64,000 bases of DNA from Candidatus Melainabacteria bacterium 17Bon1m (GTDB taxonomy: Bacteria > Cyanobacteriota > Vampirovibrionia > Obscuribacterales > Obscuribacteraceae), in the NCBI GenBank assembly GCA_032128875.1, contig JAVLKG010000004.1, positions 640,001 to 704,000 of the forward strand. Direction: 5' to 3'. Within the stretch, counting starts at the first letter, position 1. Every line of letters starts with the position of its first letter. This document shows, one piece after another, positions 6,164-15,893 of the stretch. A program made the translations under genes and the position numbers. The notes under the pieces were generated by a model. That model saw only the letters and a list, made by a program, of their open reading frames with translations, was not told where the DNA came from and searched no databases.

Positions 6164-6396
6164 AGGCACCAAAACTAGTTCTTCCATCTTTCGCAGCGTT
6201 GTATATCTGCAGTATTTCCAGGGCATATTCAAAGTCACTCGAAGATATATTTACCGAGATGCTTGCACTGCGCACCACAGAGCCAGCCGGCTTTTGGGCG
6301 ATGGTCTGCTGCATCGGTTTGCTCTTTTCTCTAGCCTTCGGATTGATGGCTCTGACGATGGGTTATTACGTCAGACACTGGACTAAGCGCAAATAG
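6160..6396 (+). CDS. Small hypothetical membrane protein
   Basis: ATGA overlap with the rhodanese stop; two hydrophobic stretches; basic C-terminus. Confidence 0.5.
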   Translation: MKAPKLVLPSFAALYICSISRAYSKSLEDIFTEMLALRTTEPAGFWAMVCCIGLLFSLAFGLMALTMGYYVRHWTKRK

Positions 6397-7824: not shown

Positions 7825-10512
7825 GTGAAACGTCTCAAAGCCATCTCTTGTTCATTGCTTGCAGCATGTGCTCTTTTAACAGCGTTTCAACCCGGACAGG
7901 GGAAGGTGGCATCGCTTTCTCCGGCTGCTGATTCATTCCGTTTGCCGCGAAGCGTCACACCAGAGAGTTACGACCTTTTTATCGATCCGGACTTAGAGAA
8001 AGGAACGTTCAAAGGAACCGAAAACATCGTCCTTAATGCTGTTCAAACAGTAGACAGAATCTATTTGAACTCACATGGACTATCTATAGAAAGCGCCGAA
8101 CTTACCGCTGAAGGTGACAAAAGATCAGGCAAGTCGGCGGCTTCAGTGACTATCGCCAAAAGCGAGCAAGTGGTCACTTTCTTGCTTTCAAAACCTATTG
8201 AACCTGGTAAGTACACCCTTAAGATTTCCTATTCCGGCCGCATGAATGACAAACTCTGCGGCTTCTACAAAGTCAAAGCCAAGGACGGCGAAGGTCATAC
8301 CGTCACTTTAGGCGCCACTCAGATGGAACCGACGGACGCCCGTCGAATGTTTCCATGTTTTGACGAACCTGATTTCAAAGCTACTTTCAAACTGAAAGTC
8401 ACAGTCGATCAAGGCAACACGGCCATTTCGAACAGTGCCGTTTCTCGAGAAGTCAAACAAAAAGGTTCAAGCAAGAGAATTGTCGAGTTTGCACCGACAC
8501 CAAAAATGTCAACCTATCTTGTTGCGCTCTTGGTCGGACCGTTTTCCTCTACTCCTCCATTAGTCGCAAATTCCATACCTATTCGTGTATGGGCGGTTAA
8601 AGGCTCTGAAAAACTCGGGCTCTTCGCGCGCAACCAAGCGGCAAAGATGATGCCGTACTTTCTGAATTACTTCGCTCAACCATATGCCGGCAACAAGCTA
8701 GATTTGATAGCAATTCCAGAGTTCGAAGCTGGTGCGATGGAAAACTTGGGCGCAATTACCTTCAGAGAAGAAACACTTTTAGTCGACGAGAAGAGTGCCT
8801 CCGTTGCCGCTCAAAAGCGTGTTTCAGAGGTGGTAGCCCATGAAATGGCACACCTCTGGTTCGGCGATTTAGTGACTATGAAATGGTGGGACGATCTTTG
8901 GCTGAACGAGGCTTTCGCCACCTGGATGTCTGAAAAGACTGTCGATTATGTGCGCCCAGACTGGCAAACATGGGAGTTTTTCACATTTGATCGCCTTGGC
9001 GCAATGGAAATTGACGAGTTGATGTCGACTCGCTCCATACACGCTGAAGTCAAAAACCCACTCGAAGCAATAGAAATGTTTGACGGCATCACATACAGCA
9101 AAGGTGCTTCTATTCTGCGAATGCTGGAAATATATTTAGGCGAAAAGGTATTTCAAACCGGCGTGCAAAATTACATGCGCGAACACAAATTCGGCAACGC
9201 GACGACGAGCGATTTGTGGAATTCCCTACAAGCAGCCTCCCAAAAACCTGTCTCCGACATCATGTACGCCTGGGTTCATTCTCCTGGCTTTCCTGTTATC
9301 GATGCTCAAAGGAAGGAGAATGGAACTGCGATTCGCCTCGGACAATCGCGATTTGTAATGGACCCTGCTGCCAGGTTAAAACCGGCGAATGCAAACGCTC
9401 TTTGGGCAATACCGGTTTCCTGGCGTTTGCTGAAAACTGACCAGCCGGCTAATCAAAAGCTTAGTTTTCTTCTCTCTTCAAAGACGGCTCCGATGGTCGA
9501 TCTGCCAAAAGATCAAATACCACTTCTGAATGCCCAAGCATCAGGCTATTATCGGGTCAACTATCCAGAAACTTGGCTTCGCGGCCTACTTTCCGCCGGG
9601 TTGGACAAACTGAGTATTGCTGAGCGCATGACGCTTCTGTCCGATCAATGGACTCTAACGTTTGCAGGAATCTCACCACTCGCTAACTATTTCCAATTGT
9701 TCAACGAATACGAATCCCAAATGGATCCGCAGTTGATCGAGATGAGAGTAGAGTGCCTAGATCGACTTTACGGGCTGCTCGACGCGAAAAGTGTTCCAAG
9801 CTTCGAACGATTCGTGCGAAAGCATTTAAATGCAACGGCAACGAAATTTGGTTGGTCATCCAAACCAAATGAAAGCGATTTGATTCGCTCAGCCAGGGGT
9901 GATGTCCTTCTAGCCCTGGGCACGATAGGGCAGGATCCTGCGACGATTGCCGAAGCGCGCAAGCAGTTTAATGTCTATCTTGCGGATTCGAGGAAAGTAG
10001 AACCAGACCTGCTCGATCCAATTTTCAAAATTGTCGCCTTCAACGGCGACGCCAAAGACTATCAAAAGATGGACAACCTCTGGCGCACAGCCAAAACTCC
10101 TGAAGAACGCGTGCGAAGCATGATGTCCCTGCCGTTTTTCAGAAAGCCTGAACTTATCGATCGCACTTTAAAGTTCAGCATTGGAAATGAAATTCGCCTT
10201 CAAGACTCTCCGAAATTGTTGGGCAATATTCTCATAATGCCTCACGCAAAACAGCCGGGCTTCAAGTTTGTCAGAGAGAACTTTGCGCTTATCAAGAAAC
10301 ATCTGCCAATGCCGACGGTACCGCATGTGGTGTGCTCACTAGAATCCATTTGCACGCCACAAGAGGAGAAGGAATATATTCAATTCCTTGCTGCAAATCC
10401 GATTCCAGCGGGACGTAAGCGCATTCAACAAGCATTAGAAACAGTGCACAATCGGGTTAATTTCCGTAATCGTTCGAGTGCGGAATTAGACAAGATTCTG
10501 AGTGGTTTTTAG
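7825..10512 (+). CDS. pepN: M1 family aminopeptidase (puromycin-sensitive/ERAP1-like), exported
   Basis: GAMEN; HEMAH-x18-E (WLNEAFA); YSKG; ERAP1-like C-terminal region; signal peptide. Confidence 0.95.
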   Translation: MKRLKAISCSLLAACALLTAFQPGQGKVASLSPAADSFRLPRSVTPESYDLFIDPDLEKGTFKGTENIVLNAVQTVDRIYLNSHGLSIESAELTAEGDKRSGKSAASVTIAKSEQVVTFLLSKPIEPGKYTLKISYSGRMNDKLCGFYKVKAKDGEGHTVTLGATQMEPTDARRMFPCFDEPDFKATFKLKVTVDQGNTAISNSAVSREVKQKGSSKRIVEFAPTPKMSTYLVALLVGPFSSTPPLVANSIPIRVWAVKGSEKLGLFARNQAAKMMPYFLNYFAQPYAGNKLDLIAIPEFEAGAMENLGAITFREETLLVDEKSASVAAQKRVSEVVAHEMAHLWFGDLVTMKWWDDLWLNEAFATWMSEKTVDYVRPDWQTWEFFTFDRLGAMEIDELMSTRSIHAEVKNPLEAIEMFDGITYSKGASILRMLEIYLGEKVFQTGVQNYMREHKFGNATTSDLWNSLQAASQKPVSDIMYAWVHSPGFPVIDAQRKENGTAIRLGQSRFVMDPAARLKPANANALWAIPVSWRLLKTDQPANQKLSFLLSSKTAPMVDLPKDQIPLLNAQASGYYRVNYPETWLRGLLSAGLDKLSIAERMTLLSDQWTLTFAGISPLANYFQLFNEYESQMDPQLIEMRVECLDRLYGLLDAKSVPSFERFVRKHLNATATKFGWSSKPNESDLIRSARGDVLLALGTIGQDPATIAEARKQFNVYLADSRKVEPDLLDPIFKIVAFNGDAKDYQKMDNLWRTAKTPEERVRSMMSLPFFRKPELIDRTLKFSIGNEIRLQDSPKLLGNILIMPHAKQPGFKFVRENFALIKKHLPMPTVPHVVCSLESICTPQEEKEYIQFLAANPIPAGRKRIQQALETVHNRVNFRNRSSAELDKILSGF

Positions 10513-10597
10513 ATCATTGCGGCAAGAATGTAATCGTCAGTGCGAATTTGAAACATTTACTCGTGGCGTTCGGAAAGTGTTCCAAGACCATATAAAA

Positions 10598-10618
10598 AAG
10601 GCGGCAACCTGCCGCCTT
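10598..10618 (-). promoter_or_regulatory. Hairpin: candidate SECIS element, may also act as intrinsic terminator
   Basis: Minus strand AAGGCGGCA-GGT-TGCCGCCTT then TTTT; loop begins 21 nt after the in-frame TGA at 10633-10631. Confidence 0.55.
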
Positions 10619-10624
10619 GAAGAA

Positions 10625-11116
10625 CTAGTTTCAGCCACCGCCGCCGCCTCCACCGCCGCCGCCCCAACTGCGACCTCCAGTGGATAAACGCGCAAACAGA
10701 TTGCCTTGACCTGCATAAGTTCGACTGGCTGCGTATCTCTCAACCTGGCTATAGCCAACAGCAGCCAAATATTTCAGCTGCGGATCTTTTGAAAAGCTGG
10801 AGACGACCTGATAGTGCTGAGCGGCCTGAGCCAACTGATTCATATTGTGGAAGCAGTAGGCAATGTAATAGTGCGTTTTGTCTCGACAATATCCATTTCG
10901 ATCCAAGCGATCGAAAATCTCATAAGCATCCTTGTACTTCTTGTCATAGACGAGCCTAACCGCCTTATAAAACTCAGGTGGATAGGTTGCCGCCTTCGAT
11001 GATTTCTTTCCCTTTTTACCCTTAGCTTCGGCGTCATTACCGGAAGGCATGATTCCCTGACTTGCGACAACCACAAGCAACACTGCTGCATAGACAAGCG
11101 AACGATTCTGTTTCAT
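10625..11116 (-). CDS. Exported TPR protein with poly-Gly tail; candidate selenoprotein (...WG10-U-N*)
   Basis: Signal peptide, TPR helices, Gly10, then TGA-AAC-TAG and a SECIS-like hairpin. The CDS ends at 10631 if TGA is a true stop. Confidence 0.8.
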
Positions 11117-11158
11117 TGACTTTCCACTTCGGCAACTTGGTAGCGTTCACATTGAGCC

Positions 11159-11179
11159 CGGGCGGCAACCTGCTGCCCG
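11159..11179 (-). promoter_or_regulatory. Hairpin: candidate SECIS element
   Basis: Minus strand CGGGCAGCA-GGT-TGCCGCCCG with one A-C mismatch and no U-tract; loop begins 23 nt after the in-frame TGA at 11196-11194. Confidence 0.55.
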
Positions 11180-11187
11180 CAAATCAA

Positions 11188-11712
11188 CTACCGTCAGCCA
11201 CGTGGGCCGCAATCTGCGGCACTGGAGCCTCCCCCGCCCCATGGACCTGCTGCGTTGCTGGGTCCTGTAGACATTCGAGCAAAGAGATTTCCCTGCCCCG
11301 CATAAGTGCGATTCTTTGCGTATTTTGCTACCTGCCCATAACCGACTGCAGCTAGATATTTAAGCTGCGGGTCTTTGGAAAAGCTGTATACGACTTGATA
11401 GTGCTGTGCTGCTTCCTGCAGTTGATTCATGTTGTGTTTGCAAAGACCCATGTAATAGTGAGTCTTATCACGGCAAAAACCATTTCGGTCCAGGCGATCG
11501 AATATATCGAAGGCGTCCTTGTATTTCTTCTCGTAGACAACCAGCTTAATAGCGTCGTTGAACTCGGGCGGGTACGGAGGAAGCTTTTTTGCAGCCTGAG
11601 CCTTTCCTTTCTTCGCTTTGGCCTCTGCAATCTGCCCAAAAGGCGAAATGCCCTGATTGACGAAAAGAATCGTCAACATTCCAGCAAGAAGGGACAAATG
11701 ATTGGATTTCAC
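11188..11712 (-). CDS. Exported TPR protein, tandem paralog; candidate selenoprotein (...DCGPRG-U-R*)
   Basis: Shares YPPEF, FDRLDRNG.CRDKTHYY, DPQLKYLAAVGY and RTYAGQGNLFAR with its neighbour; ends GGC-TGA-CGG-TAG plus hairpin. The CDS ends at 11194 if TGA is a true stop. Confidence 0.8.
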
Positions 11713-11819: not shown

Positions 11820-13067
11820 CTACTCCAAGATGTTCAGCAGTTCAAGGCAAAGGCTGTTCCAGCTCATGAACTGGGGCGCAAATAATGGTTCTCCCGTATC
11901 TGCGTGATAGTTCTCAAATAAGGTACCTTTCGCTTCAAGTCCGGTCGCTAGGGTGTTAACAACCAACTCTGCGACCTTTTGAGCATCTTTGTTGAACTTT
12001 TCGCGCACCAGCGCGCGAGCAATCAGGGCATTGGGCAAAACCCACATCGGTCCCTGCCAGTTAGAACAGATGACACGCCCATACAATCCGCGCTTTGCCT
12101 GATTGTACAAAGGCTCGGAAGCAGCAACACTTGCAATGCCCGCGCTTCTAAGGAAGTGATCGCTCGACATGATGTTCTTCTCGATTACGGCTTGAGTGCG
12201 TTCGTTATTAGTAGTCCCCATAATCACAGGACAGAGGCCAGTCCATGCTCTCAGACGGCAATGCTGCTTTGTTTTTGGATCATAGTTGTAATAGATTGAA
12301 TCTTCTTGCGACCAGAGCAACGAGTCTATTTTTTCAGCAAGAGCAGTCGCCTTGGCGTCATATTCGGCAGCCAATTTTTCGTTGCCGCCAATTTTTGCCA
12401 GCTCATTCATGGCTCGAAATTCTGCAACCAGATACGCATTTATGTCAGCTGCAAGCAGCCGTCCATCAGGGAAATTGGCGATGTCATCATTCTCGCCTTT
12501 GGCTGCTTCGAGTGGATAGAGCAGCGCCAGATTATCGTCTACACCGCTTTCCAAAACGTTTCGCCAGAAATACAATCCACTCTCGTGCTTGCGTTTTGCA
12601 TCGAAATATTTGAGATAACAATCCAACCCTTCCAAATGTCGATTGTCTATTGATGCAGATTTTGTACTCTGCTTTGCGGCAAAAAGGAGAGTCTGTGCAA
12701 GAAACGGTTTGCACTGGTCGCCGTTGTCCCAAATGCGACTGGGGGAAACAGTGCGCGGAACATGACCATCGCCTTCCTGAAGGCTGAGGAAGTTTTCCAC
12801 TACATCTTGAGCGAGCCCTTCTATACCGGCTTTCACAGATGCCTGTGCAAAAAAGCACGCGTCCCAGTCGTACATCTGCAAATAGTGACCGGTCAAAGAG
12901 CGATCGGAGACTTCACTCGAGTCATCAGCGCCCGCAACCACGTCATAAGATGGTGTCACAAAGCGATGTTTCAGCAAGCCTTTCGGATCATGAATACAGC
13001 TTTTAGCCTTTTCCAGAAAAAATCCCTTCAACTTTTTCGCTTGCGCTGTTGTCGAAGCTGTCGGCAT
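11820..13067 (-). CDS. Trehalase-like (GH63/MGH1-type) glycoside hydrolase
   Basis: MYDWD, KPFLAQ, ESGVDDN, NWQGPMW and ENYHADTG motifs of (alpha/alpha)6 glycosidases. Confidence 0.8.
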   Translation of the reverse strand: MPTASTTAQAKKLKGFFLEKAKSCIHDPKGLLKHRFVTPSYDVVAGADDSSEVSDRSLTGHYLQMYDWDACFFAQASVKAGIEGLAQDVVENFLSLQEGDGHVPRTVSPSRIWDNGDQCKPFLAQTLLFAAKQSTKSASIDNRHLEGLDCYLKYFDAKRKHESGLYFWRNVLESGVDDNLALLYPLEAAKGENDDIANFPDGRLLAADINAYLVAEFRAMNELAKIGGNEKLAAEYDAKATALAEKIDSLLWSQEDSIYYNYDPKTKQHCRLRAWTGLCPVIMGTTNNERTQAVIEKNIMSSDHFLRSAGIASVAASEPLYNQAKRGLYGRVICSNWQGPMWVLPNALIARALVREKFNKDAQKVAELVVNTLATGLEAKGTLFENYHADTGEPLFAPQFMSWNSLCLELLNILE

Positions 13068-13088: not shown

Positions 13089-15893
13089 TTAGCCCGTGCT
13101 TTGCAGTCCTGAAGCCACACCGGTAATGCTCATTAGCACGTAATCTAACAGTGCTTGACGGTCGCAAACATCGGATTTAGCGTCGATTCCTCTGACCTTC
13201 TTCAAAAATTGAACTTGCAGGTAGCTAACCGGATCTACATATGGATTACGCAACTCAATAGACTTTCTTAGATAGAGCGTACTGTCCAGAAGTTCCGACT
13301 GTCTTGAAATTGAAAGGATAGCCTCGCGTGTCCAACTGAATTCTTCTTCAATGCGGCTGAAATACTCATCTTTCAACTTCTTAGACTCAACGAGATTGTC
13401 TGCGTAGTACCGCGCGATTTCAAGGTCGGCTACGGCAAGCGCAGTTTCGATTTTCTTTACTAACCCAGTGAAGAATGGCCAGTCCGAATACATCGCGCGC
13501 ATTGTTTCTAACGCCGCAGGATCACCTTCGGTTACTTGATGATAGGCCGAGCCAAACCCGTACCAGCCAGGCAGCATGAATCGACTTTGTGTCCAGGCAA
13601 AAACCCAAGGAATCGCGCGCAAATCGTCAATTGATTGGCTGCCGGACTTTCTACGTGCTGGACGCGAGCCCATTCGCAACTCTCCAATTTCCGGCAACGG
13701 TGTTGTCTGGTGGAAGAATTCGATGAAATCCTTCGAGCCGTGAACGAGTTCTCTATAGGCTGTAAACGACTTTGCCGAAAGCGACTCCAGAAGTGGCATA
13801 CGCTCTTTGTAAATCGATTCGGATTTCTCGTCAAAACTATCAATACTCGCTTCGATTACTGCAGCAGCCAGCCGGTCGAAGTTTCTCACGGCAATATCAT
13901 TCATCGCGTACTTCGCAGCGATTACTTCGCCCTGCTCAGTTATCTTGATGCGATGATCGACAGTGCCCTCTGGTTGAGCAAGAATGGCTCTGTGAGTAGG
14001 TCCGCCACCACGTCCGATGGTGCCGCCTCGACCATGAAAAAGTCGAAGCTGAATGCCTTCCTTGCGCCCGAATTGAACAAGTGCTCGCTGCGCTTTATAC
14101 AATTCCCAATTCGCAGCCGTAATTCCGCCATTTTTGCCGGAGTCGCTGTACCCAATCATCACTTCCTGAAGATTGGATCTGCTCTTCAAATAATTCTTGT
14201 ATGCGCCAACTTGCAACAGTGCTTCGAACAGCTTCGGTGCGTTCTGCAAGTCTTCGATTGTTTCAAACAGCGGCACCACACTTATCGTGCGATCGCTTTT
14301 TTCCACACTGTACAACCCTGCTTCCTTTGCAAAAAGAAGGATCGCAAGCAAATCACTTTTGCTCTGCGTCATGCTGACTATATAAGTATCAATCGCAGGA
14401 ATGCCAAATTTGTCCTGGAGCGCAGTCATCGTGCGAAAAACTTCGATCGTTTGATTTGTCGACTCGGAAAACTGAGGATGAGCCGGAATTAGAGGTCGGG
14501 GATTTTCGATTTCTTTGGCAAGGAAAGAAACTTTCTCGTCCTCGCTCAGCCCGCGATAGCCGCCTTCAATCAGCTTCAGCGATTTACTGATTTCGTCGAG
14601 GGCATCAAGATGTCGCTCACTGTGCTGGCGTACGTCGAGTTTTGCCAGGTGAAATCCGAAGATATCGACTGCATAAAGCATCTTCTTTAGGCTCGTCAAA
14701 CTAGCAATGCAGCCGTTCGACTCCAGCGCGCCATAAATCATATTGAGTTCACTGCGAAACTCTAAATGGTGCTGATATGCTCCAGGTTCGCCGGATGAAT
14801 TCAAAGCACGACGCAATTTCTCTTGTATAAAGAGCAGCTTCTGTCGGACTTCCTCGAGACGATAGCGATCTCTGTACCTTTCATCAAGCTCTGGGAATAG
14901 AACGCGGTCTTGCTCGAGCGACGCATAGAACTCGTCGTCCATTTTGAGCCAATTTTGTGAGTGGCTCAAGTCGTTGAAGAGCGTTTCCATCTCTTTCATG
15001 TAATGCTTAAGAACCAGCGAGCGCTGGTAATTAAGTGTCTTTACCGTCACTTCCGGAGTGACGAAAGGATTGCCGTCACGGTCGCCGCCGATCCAAGAGC
15101 CAAATGTTATGAACCGCCGACTCTGTAGCGGATTCCACTTTTGCTCACCGGACAATTTGTCCAACTCCAAAACAAGGTCGTGGTGAACATCAAGAATCGC
15201 GCGAATAACAACATTCTCGAAGTGATAGAGCCCATAGCGAACTTCATCCATCACCTGAGGCTTGAAATAAATGACGTGGTCGGTCATCCATAACGATTCG
15301 ATGACCTTTAACAAATCGTCCGTAACAGCTTTCGTTTCTCGACGCGAAAGAGGTGGATGATCACGTCGCTTCAGAAGCCTCGCCAATTCAAGCTGTTTGA
15401 TTAAAACCGTTCGCCGGGTAATTTCAGTTGGGTGAGCAGTGAAAACAACTTGCACGTCCAGTTTGGAAATCGCTTGCTGCAGCTTCTCTTTTCCGTCTTT
15501 GCTGTTTTCCATCCGGTGAAAAACGCTTGTTAGCGAATCAGGCTCGGGACGGTCGTTTGCTTCATGCTCTCTTTGGGTGCGGCGACGCACGCGATGATTT
15601 TGCTCGGCGATGTTGATGAGATCAAAATACGTAAGAAAAGCTTTGATAACCTTTCCAGACGTTTCAACATCAAGACTTTCTACAAGCTCCGACAACTCTT
15701 TTTGTATTTCCGGCGTCGGATTGTTGTGTATTGATTTCGACAGCAGCCTGAATCGCTCGACTACATCAAAGAGCTTGTCGCCTTCGAAACGCCGAATTGT
15801 GTCGCCTAGTAAACTGCCGAGCAGGCGAACATCTTCACGCAGCGGACGATCACGGTCGTCGGTCTTTTCTTTGCTAACGCTAGATGAGCTCAT
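13089..15893 (-). CDS. ppc: Phosphoenolpyruvate carboxylase
   Basis: VFTAHPTE, SWIGGDRDGNP, QEVMIGYSDSGK, FHGRGGTIGRGGG, LRAIPWVFAWTQ. Confidence 0.98.
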   Translation of the reverse strand: MSSSSVSKEKTDDRDRPLREDVRLLGSLLGDTIRRFEGDKLFDVVERFRLLSKSIHNNPTPEIQKELSELVESLDVETSGKVIKAFLTYFDLINIAEQNHRVRRRTQREHEANDRPEPDSLTSVFHRMENSKDGKEKLQQAISKLDVQVVFTAHPTEITRRTVLIKQLELARLLKRRDHPPLSRRETKAVTDDLLKVIESLWMTDHVIYFKPQVMDEVRYGLYHFENVVIRAILDVHHDLVLELDKLSGEQKWNPLQSRRFITFGSWIGGDRDGNPFVTPEVTVKTLNYQRSLVLKHYMKEMETLFNDLSHSQNWLKMDDEFYASLEQDRVLFPELDERYRDRYRLEEVRQKLLFIQEKLRRALNSSGEPGAYQHHLEFRSELNMIYGALESNGCIASLTSLKKMLYAVDIFGFHLAKLDVRQHSERHLDALDEISKSLKLIEGGYRGLSEDEKVSFLAKEIENPRPLIPAHPQFSESTNQTIEVFRTMTALQDKFGIPAIDTYIVSMTQSKSDLLAILLFAKEAGLYSVEKSDRTISVVPLFETIEDLQNAPKLFEALLQVGAYKNYLKSRSNLQEVMIGYSDSGKNGGITAANWELYKAQRALVQFGRKEGIQLRLFHGRGGTIGRGGGPTHRAILAQPEGTVDHRIKITEQGEVIAAKYAMNDIAVRNFDRLAAAVIEASIDSFDEKSESIYKERMPLLESLSAKSFTAYRELVHGSKDFIEFFHQTTPLPEIGELRMGSRPARRKSGSQSIDDLRAIPWVFAWTQSRFMLPGWYGFGSAYHQVTEGDPAALETMRAMYSDWPFFTGLVKKIETALAVADLEIARYYADNLVESKKLKDEYFSRIEEEFSWTREAILSISRQSELLDSTLYLRKSIELRNPYVDPVSYLQVQFLKKVRGIDAKSDVCDRQALLDYVLMSITGVASGLQSTG

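Follow-up and report, generated by a model that had tools for sequence, protein, structure and literature searches.

Organization of the locus

The window, a stretch of 64,000 nucleotides from an Obscuribacteraceae MAG (7.55 Mb), carries on its minus strand two neighbouring paralogs, referred to as gene A and gene B, which share the same architecture and whose proteins are 63% identical. Gene A starts with GTG at position 11712 and gene B with ATG at position 11116. Both frames contain a TGA that is followed by a single codon and a second stop. The 3' end of gene A reads GAT TGC GGC CCA CGT GGC TGA CGG TAG TT and that of gene B GGC GGT GGC TGA AAC TAG TT. For the coordinates of all features see Table 1.

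Table 1. Features of genes A and B and of their 3' ends (window coordinates)
Feature	Position	Strand	Remarks
Gene A, read through	11188..11712	minus	174 codons, then TAG; translated with TGA as U
Gene A in-frame TGA, read as predicted Sec-173 (penultimate residue)	11194..11196	minus	TGA kept in 95/97 short-tail homolog contexts, which are kin by descent
Gene A codon CGG after TGA	11193-11191	minus	
Gene A second stop TAG	11190-11188	minus	
Gene A SECIS-like hairpin	11159..11179	minus	C-GGGCAGCA-GGT-TGCCGCCC-G
Gene B, read through	10625..11116	minus	163 codons, ATG ... GGGGGGGGGG-U-N, then TAG
Gene B in-frame TGA, read as predicted Sec-162 (penultimate residue)	10631..10633	minus	
Gene B codon AAC after TGA	10630-10628	minus	
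Gene B second stop TAG	10627-10625	minus	
Gene B SECIS-like hairpin and T-run	10594..10618	minus	AAGGCGGCA-GGT-TGCCGCCTT at 10618-10598

A hairpin follows each second stop. In gene A it comprises an 8-bp stem with one A.C mismatch, an outer C-G pair and a GGU loop (11170-11168) at a distance of 23 nt from the TGA. It lies entirely in the 3' untranslated region, within the 77-nt spacer upstream of gene B. It has no T-tract, since the next bases are gggctcaatg, and a terminator check gave no terminator-like flag. The hairpin of gene B has a perfect 9-bp stem and a GGU loop 21 nt from the TGA. It is followed by TTTT, reaching position 10594, and this combination of a GC-rich stem and a T-run was flagged as terminator-like. 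The exact A/B hairpin was found only at these two sites of the genome and is therefore no dispersed repeat.

A sequence-only reading of this DNA had described both genes as ending in GGC-TGA-NNN-TAG, followed by a GGU-loop hairpin at 23 nt (A) and 21 nt (B), and had noted that the upstream copy has no U-tract. This description is exact, and the bases 3' of the gene A stem bear out the latter point. The tails that it gave for the two proteins, PSNAAGPWGGGGSSAADCGPRG and GRSWGGGGGGGGGG, read the same on re-translation. It expected standard annotation to truncate both proteins by two residues; all public gene calls stop them at the TGA.

Three RNA-labelled runs were considered as a source of transcription evidence. 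Their contigs (13-124 kb) cover the whole stretch evenly, and the runs are therefore uninformative on transcription, operon structure and 3' ends. DNA nearly identical to this stretch was encountered in drinking-water and aquifer habitats. The genes adjoining family members vary among loci (MGH1-like glycosidase, acyltransferase, peptidase C26, TPR proteins, Ile-tRNA ligase). The neighbourhoods compared share no partner gene, and gene context therefore gives no functional hint.

Conservation of the 3' ends

A census of 111 distinct homolog 3' contexts from four sources contained 97 short-tail members. In 95 of these 97 a TGA is followed by 1-7 codons and then by a stop, a count that overstates the number of independent observations because the contexts are kin by descent. 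It is composed of 93 contexts counted by script and two (L066 and L094) added by eye; the detailed counts refer to the 93. The second stop is TAG in 34, TAA in 31 and TGA in 28 contexts, which suggests that the true stop drifts across homologs while the first TGA stays fixed. The extension after the TGA amounts to one codon in 46 contexts, two in 34, three in 7 and four to seven in 6, which would place Sec 1-3 residues from the C-terminus in 87/93.

The residue before the putative Sec (U) is mostly Gly (G 78, S 7, A 4, C 3, T 1) and the one after it mostly Arg or Gly (R 51, G 23, N 7, Q 5, K 3, H 2, A 1, P 1). Among 44 aligned contexts, the codons after the TGA include CGG (8), CGC (7), CGT (5), CGA (5), AAT (4), AAC (3) and GGN-GGC (7). 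Variation is mostly at the third position (CGN, AAY, GGN) and the residue classes (R, G, N, Q) are conserved, which is suggestive over a length of just 1-7 codons. Judging by the residues encoded after the UGA, T does not occur as the next base in any of the 93 contexts. Free divergence is seen in the tail sequences that link the domain to the TGA, but not in the TGA itself, the spacing or the loop.

Comparative analysis of the hairpin

Pairing in 44 aligned hairpin sequences was 91.4% versus 71.6% in shuffled ones. The covariation score was 0.645, compared with 0.262 for shuffled alignments (0/500 shuffles reached the observed score) and 0.13-0.19 for slid controls. Double changes occur at all 8 inner stem pairs. 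Of the 93 contexts, 62 have a GGT loop and 12 a GTT loop, and in 89 the loop follows the TGA at a distance of 17-25 nt, irrespective of the length of the extension. A T-rich tail follows the hairpin in only 15/93. The same arrangement is present in homologs down to about 30-40% identity and, taking the model matches alone, in at least 17 genera. The stems of distant homologs have a wholly different sequence with the pairing retained.

It is this comparison, rather than the folding of single sequences, that argues for a hairpin above chance. By single-sequence folding, the gene A hairpin does not exceed its shuffles in stability (z 0.17), and that of gene B (-15.8 kcal/mol, z -2.07) does so modestly. 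A covariance model of the element (R1), which includes the GGC-TGA-CGN-stop flank, matched gene A with 46.4 bits (E 1.3e-6) and gene B with 49.6 bits (E 2.6e-7). In 104 family genomes all of its 56 matches (56/56) belong to genes of the family. R1 found no other selenoprotein gene in the genome and gave no score to E. coli fdhF; it is therefore specific to the family and no independent SECIS detector. A search of Rfam with positions 10540-11260 (E up to 10) returned no SECIS family, just a chance match of 13.7 bits.

Selenocysteine machinery and stop codon use

The genome encodes selA (497 bits), selB (286 bits) and selD (370 bits), all above curated cut-offs. A tRNA-Sec was detected with 67.5 bits, and ARAGORN reports it as tRNA-SeC with anticodon tca. 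TGA terminates 1197 of 4472 long frames (27%) and is still an ordinary stop, which rules out genome-wide reassignment. A stop exactly one codon after the TGA occurs in only 2.9% of the TGA-ended long frames.

The sequence-only reading had suggested a scan of the genome for further copies. With R1, the sites of genes A and B were the only ones obtained. The next match (contig C12, 23 bits, E 0.18) was rejected, as its frame context does not fit. When all six frames were scanned for long-flanked in-frame TGA codons, 3924 candidates resulted, and this approach was dropped as far too noisy. A motif-restricted scan yielded 26 candidates, of which only a WUGPCK thioredoxin on contig C2 was convincing; with the motif used, it gave no Sec-type formate dehydrogenase. 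Hairpins with an AGGTT loop and a stem of 7 bp or more, located 17-27 nt downstream of an in-frame TGA, were found at five sites of the genome in a strict scan. Gene B is among them; gene A was missed because of its stem mismatch.

As far as searched, the family is confined to Obscuribacteraceae (Melainabacteria / Vampirovibrionia). The element is present in 50 of the 104 family genomes, 49 of which also contain a marker of Sec synthesis (tRNA-Sec in 44, selA in 5 more). The remaining one (G259), with neither tRNA-Sec nor selA, is 65% complete. Four element genomes gave no selA match; selB, selD and tRNA-Sec are all present in them. In one family genome, G024 (91% complete), selA, selB and tRNA-Sec all stayed below cut-off. 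Its family member reads TGG-...-TAG with the tail ...GWQRCQPN and has no comparable hairpin, and it is the one DNA example of hairpin absence without Sec. In another, G058, neither tRNA-Sec nor selA was found, and its members are thioredoxin fusions with TGT only (WCGPC, WCGVC).

Protein architecture

In the gene A protein, a predicted signal peptide precedes a TPR-like helical domain (about residues 49-133), which is followed by a disordered, Gly-rich tail with the predicted ending CGPRG-U-R. The signal peptide assignment is based on a basic N-terminus, a hydrophobic stretch and AEA before KAKK, and members of the family are accordingly predicted to be exported. An AF2 model places five helices in residues 49-133, where pLDDT exceeds 90; for residues 136-174 it is below 50. 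The top matches of the domain in a Foldseek search against the PDB (FKBP51, LapB, SycD, MamA and YbgF) are all TPR domains, yet they are weak (E 0.017-0.09, none at or below 0.001). Pfam TPR models stayed below their gathering scores (TPR_1 13.9-15.6 bits, cut-off 27.8; ANAPC3 15.4 bits, cut-off 27.2). The conserved motifs of the domain are HYY-x-x-LC and RTY-x-GQGN. One Cys is common to all members compared, C91 of gene A, located in the motif LC.

Cys forms and thioredoxin fusions

Among 148 protein representatives, 8 have Cys 1-3 residues before the C-terminus (...GCGG, ...GCH, ...GCQ, ...CGRR and the like), judged on predicted proteins whose low-complexity tails were aligned by position from the C-terminus. 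These endings mirror the putative Sec endings GUGG, (C)UH, GUQ and UGR/URR. For one Cys form (P0057), the relatives found in 401 genomes of the class all have at most 46% identity, and all are Sec forms as predicted from the TGA.

Clear Sec/Cys pairs were observed in the branch in which the same domain is fused to thioredoxin. The fusion is of the WCGPC type in 20 representatives and is cut at ...FYxDW, corresponding to WUGPC, in 6. The genome analysed here has its own WUGPCK fusion (G000, C2:5996-6679). Fusions and short-tail members share the N-terminal signal peptide and the helical domain with HYY-x-x-LC and, in many, RTY-x-GQG; a single profile finds both, and both have Sec or Cys at the presumed redox site. 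The fusions differ by a full thioredoxin domain after a linker in place of the bare, Sec-ended tail, and their SECIS would lie inside the coding region. Thioredoxin (PF00085) is a listed selenoprotein family in the table of a 2026 review (PMC13188914).

Comparison with known systems

The sequence-only reading knew of no described family with this architecture. This stands insofar as the family is absent from the list of the review (PMC13188914) and has no NCBIfam match, a comparison outside which Haft and Tolstoy 2025 lies. What does not stand is the novelty of the kind, because C-terminal Sec is already known. The table in section 7 of the review lists bacterial families whose Sec precedes the stop by one to three residues (UXX-star, GUXX-star and KCU-star), namely UXX-star family 1 (NF041114), UXX-star family 2 (NF041211, motif GxGU), a HUGP/GUXX-star fusion (NF041212) and KCU-star (NF033934), as well as Cys-Sec-COOH SaoC (NF040734). 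It proposes a metal ligand or a redox centre as the role of Sec in the star families. As in these families, the predicted Sec lies one to three residues from the C-terminus and in many cases follows a Gly, and a position so close to the end places the SECIS at or beyond the stop codon. On comparison by HMM and with the table of the review, the Obscuribacteraceae family differs by its signal peptide, its TPR-like domain and its long, disordered Gly-rich tail. The star-family models of NCBIfam gave no match to P0001 and P0002 (E up to 1) or to 8 further members (E up to 10). In our reading, the family is new but belongs to the known C-terminal-Sec ('star') kind.

The apex of the E. coli fdhF SECIS, which the sequence-only reading had used for comparison, was checked in K-12 and is correct: the loop GGTC in the apex GCA-GGTC-TGC lies 18 nt after the TGA. 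Genes A and B have GCA-GGT-TGC at 21-23 nt. In both systems the hairpin is located just 3' of the UGA, and its loop begins with GGU and is closed by C-A...U-G. The fdhF element lies within the coding region and has a 4-nt loop and a bulged U, whereas those of genes A and B lie in the 3' untranslated region and combine a 3-nt loop with a plain helix of 8-9 bp.

Mammalian thioredoxin reductase has the tail Gly-Cys-Sec-Gly, and in SelS and SelK, too, the Sec is penultimate or near-terminal and sits on a flexible tail that contains glycine. Some family members likewise appear to have adjacent Cys and Sec (C before U in 3/93, e.g. ...GGGC-U-H). However, the family is bacterial and predicted to be exported, has no flavoprotein domain and mostly has Gly before the Sec position. 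It also uses a bacterial-type hairpin adjoining the UGA instead of a eukaryotic SECIS. The likeness to thioredoxin reductase, SelS and SelK would thus be an analogy of design and not membership.

Proposed mechanism and alternatives

From the anatomy of the 3' ends, their conservation, the covariation of the hairpin and the co-occurrence with the Sec machinery we infer that Sec is inserted at the UGA, and we consider it highly probable that genes A and B are members of a previously unlisted selenoprotein family. The sequence-only reading had already proposed this decoding. It had named three kinds of counter-evidence: a genome without Sec machinery, homologs with other stops at this position and no Cys variants, and a hairpin that acts as a common terminator or repeat. 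We found instead all four machinery genes, a conserved first TGA together with Cys forms, and a hairpin that occurs only after family genes and seldom has a T-rich tail.

We propose that the protein is composed of a signal peptide, a TPR-like helical domain, a disordered glycine-rich tail and the UGA-encoded Sec, which would be separated from the real stop by one or a few residues, mostly basic ones or glycine. SelB carrying Sec-tRNA(Sec) would bind the 8-bp hairpin with its GGU apical loop; counted from the UGA, the stem begins at about 12-15 nt and the loop at about 21 nt. Because coding would end one codon past the UGA, the SECIS would be located in the 3' untranslated region. The gene B hairpin with its U-run would probably also end transcription and double as the intrinsic terminator of the A-B pair. 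The gene A hairpin would not terminate, and the two genes are therefore probably co-transcribed.

If the TGA were a real stop, the proteins would end in Gly, the hairpin would be a conserved terminator or an mRNA-stabilising stem-loop, and the second stop a back-up 'tandem stop'. The perfect GC-rich stem and T-run of gene B, the T-rich tails of 15 of the 93 hairpins and the public gene calls agree with such an arrangement, but the other 78 hairpins have no T-rich tail, including the one of gene A in front of gene B. Nor does a terminator need a conserved loop or a fixed spacing (17-25 nt) relative to a particular codon. Almost throughout the related short-tail contexts, moreover, TGA is the first stop, against a background of 27%, while the second is evenly spread; the triplet after the TGA varies mostly at the third position, and the element occurs only alongside Sec markers (49/50 genomes). 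Taken together, this makes a real stop very improbable. A functionless likeness of the two 3' ends, left by a recent tandem duplication or gene conversion, would fit two adjacent paralogs of 63% identity and an exact hairpin at only two genomic sites. Such an origin is scarcely credible given the same arrangement at 30-40% identity in at least 17 genera, with different but paired stems, and given tails that diverged freely around a retained TGA, spacing and loop.

The UGA might also be read through without Sec, by near-cognate tRNA-Trp or by hairpin-stimulated suppression, to give a mixture of short products and products extended by 1-7 residues. UGA-C is a leaky context in E. coli, and none of the 93 contexts has T as the base 3' of the UGA. 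The member of G024, a genome without Sec markers, has TGG aligned with the TGA, its frame continuing as QRCQPN, and this Trp codon equally fits an ancestral read-through of the Trp type. However, the usual replacement is Cys and not Trp (8/148 representatives, and WCGPC versus WUGPC in the fusions). Genomes with the element also have tRNA-Sec or selA (49/50), its loop and spacing correspond to the SelB-binding type of E. coli fdhF, and it is not obvious what a protein would gain from one added Arg or Asn unless the recoded residue itself is important. We regard this kind of read-through as very improbable, and Sec insertion as the preferred reading.

For the predicted Sec-containing proteins, the most likely function is that of a redox-active or metal- or selenium-binding selenol on the flexible arm of a periplasmic, client-binding TPR scaffold. 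In function, the Sec tail would then correspond to the thioredoxin domain (WCGPC or WUGPC) that takes its place in paralogs with the same N-terminal domain. Possible partners of the selenol are C91 of gene A or a Cys of the tail (CGPRGU; GGGCU).

A more far-reaching and rather improbable proposal is that, among natural 'swing-arm' selenoenzymes, these proteins are the smallest and consist of a periplasmic TPR clamp with a Sec tether. The clamp would hold a client protein or peptide, and the selenol at the tip of a disordered glycine tether of 30-40 residues would carry out disulfide/selenenylsulfide exchange, reduce peroxide, or capture a soft metal or selenium itself. In evolution, the tether and a single Sec would have replaced the whole thioredoxin domain of the paralogs. 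The hairpin in the 3' untranslated region would act as SECIS and terminator at once, and the ratio of Gly-ended to Sec-ended product would report the selenium supply to the cell envelope.

Implications

If Sec is inserted, about a hundred public Obscuribacteraceae genes are annotated two or more residues short, and current annotations omit the only likely catalytic residue of these proteins. The 2026 review counts 119 prokaryotic selenoprotein families (PMC13188914), to which this one would add an exported entry of non-thioredoxin fold. It would also provide a natural set of bacterial SECIS elements located wholly in the 3' untranslated region, which may be relevant to the engineering of C-terminal Sec tags. 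The same applies to gene finders that depend on Cys homologs or on coding sequence after the UGA; according to the deep-Sep paper, such methods miss selenoproteins without Cys homologs (PMC12013277). Within the family, the paired architectures, a Sec-tipped tail and a thioredoxin domain on one scaffold, would offer a direct handle on the role of the selenol.

Genes A and B and their 3' ends

Genes A and B are paralogs arranged head to tail on the minus strand of the window. The gene ends described in the sequence-only reading, TGA-NNN-TAG with a hairpin behind it, were all found as described. The two proteins are 63% identical and their tails differ beyond the motif RTYAGQGNLFAR. For coordinates see the table.

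Coordinates of genes A and B, their 3' elements and the neighbouring genes in the window
Feature	Position	Strand	Description
Gene A, start	11712	minus	GTG; 172 residues before the TGA
Gene A, TGA	11196-11194	minus	end GGC TGA CGG TAG
Gene A, hairpin	11179-11159	minus	C-GGGCAGCA-GGT-TGCCGCCC-G; one A.C mismatch; loop 23 nt from TGA; T-tract absent downstream
Gene B, start	11116	minus	ATG; 161 residues before the TGA
Gene B, TGA	10633-10631	minus	end GGC TGA AAC TAG
Gene B, hairpin	10618-10598	minus	AAGGCGGCA-GGT-TGCCGCCTT; stem perfect; loop 21 nt from TGA; T-run downstream
Neighbour gene	7825-10512	plus	895-aa exported protein; M1-type aminopeptidase by reading of the sequence
Neighbour gene	11820-13067	minus	MGH1-like/trehalase-like glycoside hydrolase (Pfam PF22422, E 2e-37)
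Neighbour gene	13089-15893	minus	934 aa; looks like phosphoenolpyruvate carboxylase by reading of the sequence

The exact A/B hairpin has no further copy in the 7.55-Mb source assembly (G000). A pattern scanner flagged the hairpin of gene B, and not that of gene A, as terminator-like. In single-sequence folding the gene B hairpin was modestly better than its shuffles (z -2.07) and that of gene A no better (z 0.17). The meaning of these 3' ends must be judged by comparison with homologs. No conserved flanking genes were found: the window neighbours do not recur beside homologs at other loci. Three libraries recorded as transcriptomic RNA-Seq (X3-X5) yielded contigs of 13-124 kb with even cover of the locus. 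They behave like DNA libraries or contain much genomic DNA, and with contigs of this length they are uninformative on transcripts.

Protein domain and tail

Pfam and NCBIfam searches returned TPR-type matches, all of them sub-threshold. An AlphaFold2 model from an 18-sequence alignment predicts five confident helices (residues 49-133, pLDDT above 90) and a disordered tail (residues 136-174, pLDDT about 40). The best PDB matches were all TPR domains (FKBP51, LapB, SycD, MamA, YbgF; E 0.017-0.09), with no PDB match at E <=0.001. The N-terminus, MKSNHLSLLAGMLTILFVNQGISPFGQIAEA followed by KAKK, resembles a signal peptide of the Sec type. Cys80, His85, Cys91 and His93 are among the residues invariant in the close alignment; in the wider family only the second cysteine is retained, in the motif HYY-x-x-LC. 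In public annotation these proteins end at the TGA and go by the names 'hypothetical' or 'TPR repeat protein'.

Conservation of the TGA codon

Homolog DNA was collected from 41 related genomes, GTDB genome contigs (34 loci), metagenome contigs (16 loci) and a 401-genome sample of the class, from which 63 more regions were cut. In each tblastn match the conserved Y-x-G-x-G motif fixed the frame, which was followed as far as its first stop codon, and 111 contexts remained after identical ones had been dropped. They comprise 95 short-tail members whose first stop is TGA, followed by 1-7 codons and a second stop, two short-tail members with another first stop, and 14 thioredoxin fusions or other longer relatives. 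The TGA is the first stop in 95 of 97 short-tail contexts. In the other two it is replaced by TAA at L093:700, a third paralog type with the tail ...SCNGRNW, and by TAG at L056, where the tail is ...GWQRCQPN. A script tallied 93 of the 95, L066 and L094 being assigned by eye, and the feature counts below use the 93.

The second stop is TAG in 34, TAA in 31 and TGA in 28 contexts. The extension between the stops is very short, with one codon in 46 cases, two in 34, three in seven, four in one, five in two and seven in three. The TGA is preceded by Gly (78), Ser (7), Ala (4), Cys (3) or Thr (1) and followed by Arg (51), Gly (23), Asn (7), Gln (5), Lys (3), His (2), Ala (1) or Pro (1). In an alignment of 44 distinct TGA contexts (A2) the following triplets are CGG (8), CGC (7), CGT (5), CGA (5), AAT (4), AAC (3), GGC-GGC (4), GGA-GGC (2), GGT-GGC (1) and a few others; this bias of the variation towards third positions is the pattern of translated codons. 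The first stop is constant, whereas the use of TAG, TAA and TGA as second stop is roughly that expected from the genome at large. We regard this contrast as the strongest single argument against the TGA being a stop. Common descent makes the contexts non-independent; they reach down to about 30% protein identity, span at least 17 genera and come mostly from incomplete metagenome-assembled genomes.

The third paralog type was seen at about 600-700 of L093 (genome G002), adjoining a Sec-type copy. The L093 copy has a TAA stop and no GGU-loop hairpin. The type, which includes the proteins P0027 and P0029, has endings of the form ...SCNGRNW, ...NTCGW or ...NSYGW, and appears to be a Sec-free branch beside the Sec-type copy of the same genome. 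At L159, L183 and L186 (genomes G291, G137 and G224) the seven-codon extension reads U-QRKTGCP or U-QRRG(L/M)CP, where U is Sec, with a cysteine five or six residues beyond the Sec and the loop 31-32 nt from the TGA. Such a tail would represent a U-x(n)-C variant whose SECIS is displaced.

The hairpin

The loop is constant while the stems differ, as in GGGAGGCA-GGT-TGCCTCCC, GAGCGTCA-GGT-TGGCGCTC, GAAGAGTA-GGT-TGCTCTTC and GGGTGCTA-GTT-TAGTACCC. Nine pairs were counted in A2, eight inner and one outer. Standard pairs fill 91.4% of the cells compared with 71.6% after shuffling, and two-sided changes occur at all eight inner pairs. The covariation score of 0.645 (shuffled 0.262) was reached by none of 500 shuffles and fell to 0.13-0.19 when the partner was slid by 1-3 columns. 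The outer ninth pair is poor, being unpaired in 24 of 44 sequences. Of the 93 contexts, 62 have the loop GGT and 12 have GTT, and the loop starts 17-25 nt from the TGA in 89, for 1-codon as for 5-codon extensions. A contiguous stem of at least 7 bp is present in 79, the remainder mostly having one internal mismatch like gene A, and only 15 have a T-rich tail. By these comparisons the anatomy of the hairpin is that of a putative bacterial SECIS element and not of a terminator.

Rfam gave no match at the hairpin region of the window. A covariance model built from A2 found only the two window sites in the source assembly, 22 sites in 17 of the 41 relatives and, among 104 genomes of the family Obscuribacteraceae, 56 sites spread over 50 genomes. 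A coordinate check placed each of the 56 immediately 3' of a member gene of the same protein family. The model includes the GGC-TGA-CGN flank and leaves E. coli fdhF unscored, so it detects the 3' end of this family and not SECIS elements generally.

On contig C7 of the source assembly (minus strand, offset 345421 on the reverse complement) an unrelated 64-codon frame (...SRERPRRSTP) runs into an in-frame TGA, behind which come three codons, a second TGA and a hairpin of the same 3' design, AAGGGCA-GGT-TGCCCTT, 18 nt downstream. This could be a coincidence or a further small Sec gene. The palindrome GGCGGCA-NNNN-TGCCGCC occurs in 98 copies over both strands of this assembly, compared with 10 for the version with a 3-nt loop, and may represent a GC-rich terminator or a repeated hairpin that is common in this genome.

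Co-occurrence with the selenocysteine machinery

The source assembly (35 contigs, 93% complete) contains all four markers sought, each over its curated cut-off: selA (497 bits), selB (286 bits, covering model positions 3-579 of 581), selD (370 bits) and one tRNA-Sec (67.5 bits), called by ARAGORN as tRNA-SeC (anticodon tca). The organism is thus equipped for selenoprotein synthesis. TGA is still an ordinary stop in this genome and the rarest of the three: 4472 frames of at least 250 codons end in TAA (1698), TAG (1577) or TGA (1197, 27%).

In the sample of 41 genomes, selA is present in 23 and the TGA-plus-hairpin element in 17; all four element-bearing genomes without a selA match have selB, selD and tRNA-Sec. 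In the family, 87 of 104 genomes have tRNA-Sec. Among its 50 element-bearing genomes 44 have tRNA-Sec, five more have selA (G008, G015, G226, G145, G286), and the fiftieth, G259, is a genome of 65% completeness.

Two genomes serve as Sec-less counter-examples. In G024 (91% complete, 10 contigs) there is no selA, and neither selB nor tRNA-Sec scored above cut-off. Its sole short-tail member reads ...PPG-TGG-CAG...(W-Q-R-C-Q-P-N)-TAG without a comparable hairpin. MAFFT aligned this Trp with the U of relatives ending U-QRKTGCP and U-QRRGLCP, a correspondence that is only suggestive in so short and low-complexity a tail. In G058 (93% complete) neither tRNA-Sec nor selA was found, and its family members are of the thioredoxin-fusion type only, their active sites (WCGPC, WCGVC) being encoded with TGT. 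With P0057 as query, the protein family was found in 78 of 401 genomes of the class, i.e. the source genome and 77 of the 103 other Obscuribacteraceae, and in none of 297 genomes of eleven other families.

Cysteine forms and thioredoxin fusions

Among 1.84 billion representatives, a profile search gave 237 relatives at E up to 0.001, and the tails of 148 sequences, from the best 150 of these, were inspected. Fifty-six end in Gly. Eight short representatives carry a cysteine within one to three residues of the C-terminus: P0057 (...GGGGCGG), P0111, P0121 and P0180 (...GCH), P0128 (...GGCQ), P0131 (...CGRH), P0134 (...CGRR) and P0176 (...RCQPN). These endings, from predicted proteins and matched by C-terminal distance, mirror the Sec forms G-U-GG, (C)-U-H, G-U-Q and U-GR or U-RR. 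By the same measure, the ending ...GGGC of two inspected sequences fits the Cys-Sec DNA forms ...GGGC-U-H (L145, L163).

Twenty of the 148 are fusions of the same N-terminal domain to a thioredoxin with W-C/S-x-x-C. Six representatives stop at ...EFYxDW, where the DNA reads W-TGA-GGN-CCN-TG(T/C), i.e. WUGPC. Thioredoxin is an established selenoprotein family (table of PMC13188914), so the WUGPC fusions, as read from DNA, demonstrably place Sec on this scaffold in the lineage.

The source genome has such a fusion outside the window (C2:5996-6679, minus strand, TGA 6224-6226, ...EFYADW-U-GPCKKF...), its third member of the domain family, with signal peptide, TPR-like and thioredoxin domains. If a gene call halted at this TGA, the frame would have 151 codons and end in Trp.

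Comparison with known systems and proposed mechanism

The recoding mechanism of the A/B family would be the ordinary bacterial one. In E. coli K-12 fdhF the loop GGTC lies 18 nt from the TGA within the apex GCA-GGTC-TGC, in agreement with the apex and approximate spacing given in the earlier reading. The review PMC13188914 places bacterial SECIS elements inside coding regions. Its table nevertheless lists families with Sec adjoining the C-terminus (UXX-star 1 and 2, HUGP/GUXX-star, KCU-star, SaoC), and a term search of its 119 families gave no TPR, Melainabacteria or Cyanobacteria entry. The NCBIfam models of UXX-star, HUGP/GUXX-star, KCU-star and SaoC matched none of ten family members. The nine new families of deep-Sep in the retrieved text of PMC12013277 do not include this one. 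Full-text searches on Melainabacteria selenoproteins, new bacterial families, UXX-star and penultimate bacterial Sec brought up no description, the Melainabacteria papers dealing with gut or nutrition as judged from titles and abstracts, though the family may have been mentioned before. In the literature searched, the claim that no such family had been described stands for the A/B family itself and not for the type, which the table of PMC13188914 already covers. On these grounds we class the A/B family as a candidate new selenoprotein family of the known C-terminal-Sec type.

Sequence comparison documents a conserved UGA, a SECIS-like hairpin at a spacing compatible with SelB, the Sec machinery and the Sec-less counter-examples. 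We propose that the GGU-loop hairpin would be bound by SelB with Sec-tRNA(Sec) while the UGA occupies the ribosomal A site. Sec would be inserted, one to a few residues added, and the chain released at the next stop. Because Sec codons usually face competition by RF2, the short Gly-ended form is probably produced too. The gene A hairpin has no U-run and lies 40-odd nt upstream of the gene B start, which makes a single transcript for both genes probable; the gene B hairpin with its U-run should double as transcription terminator.

A tentative proposal for the function draws on three points: thioredoxin domains can take the place of the tail, Cys-Sec or C-x4-U pairs (CGPRGU) are present in occasional members, and terminal Sec has its general chemistry. 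The proteins could have an envelope redox or a soft-metal/selenium-binding activity, in which a client would sit in the TPR groove and the tethered selenol would react.
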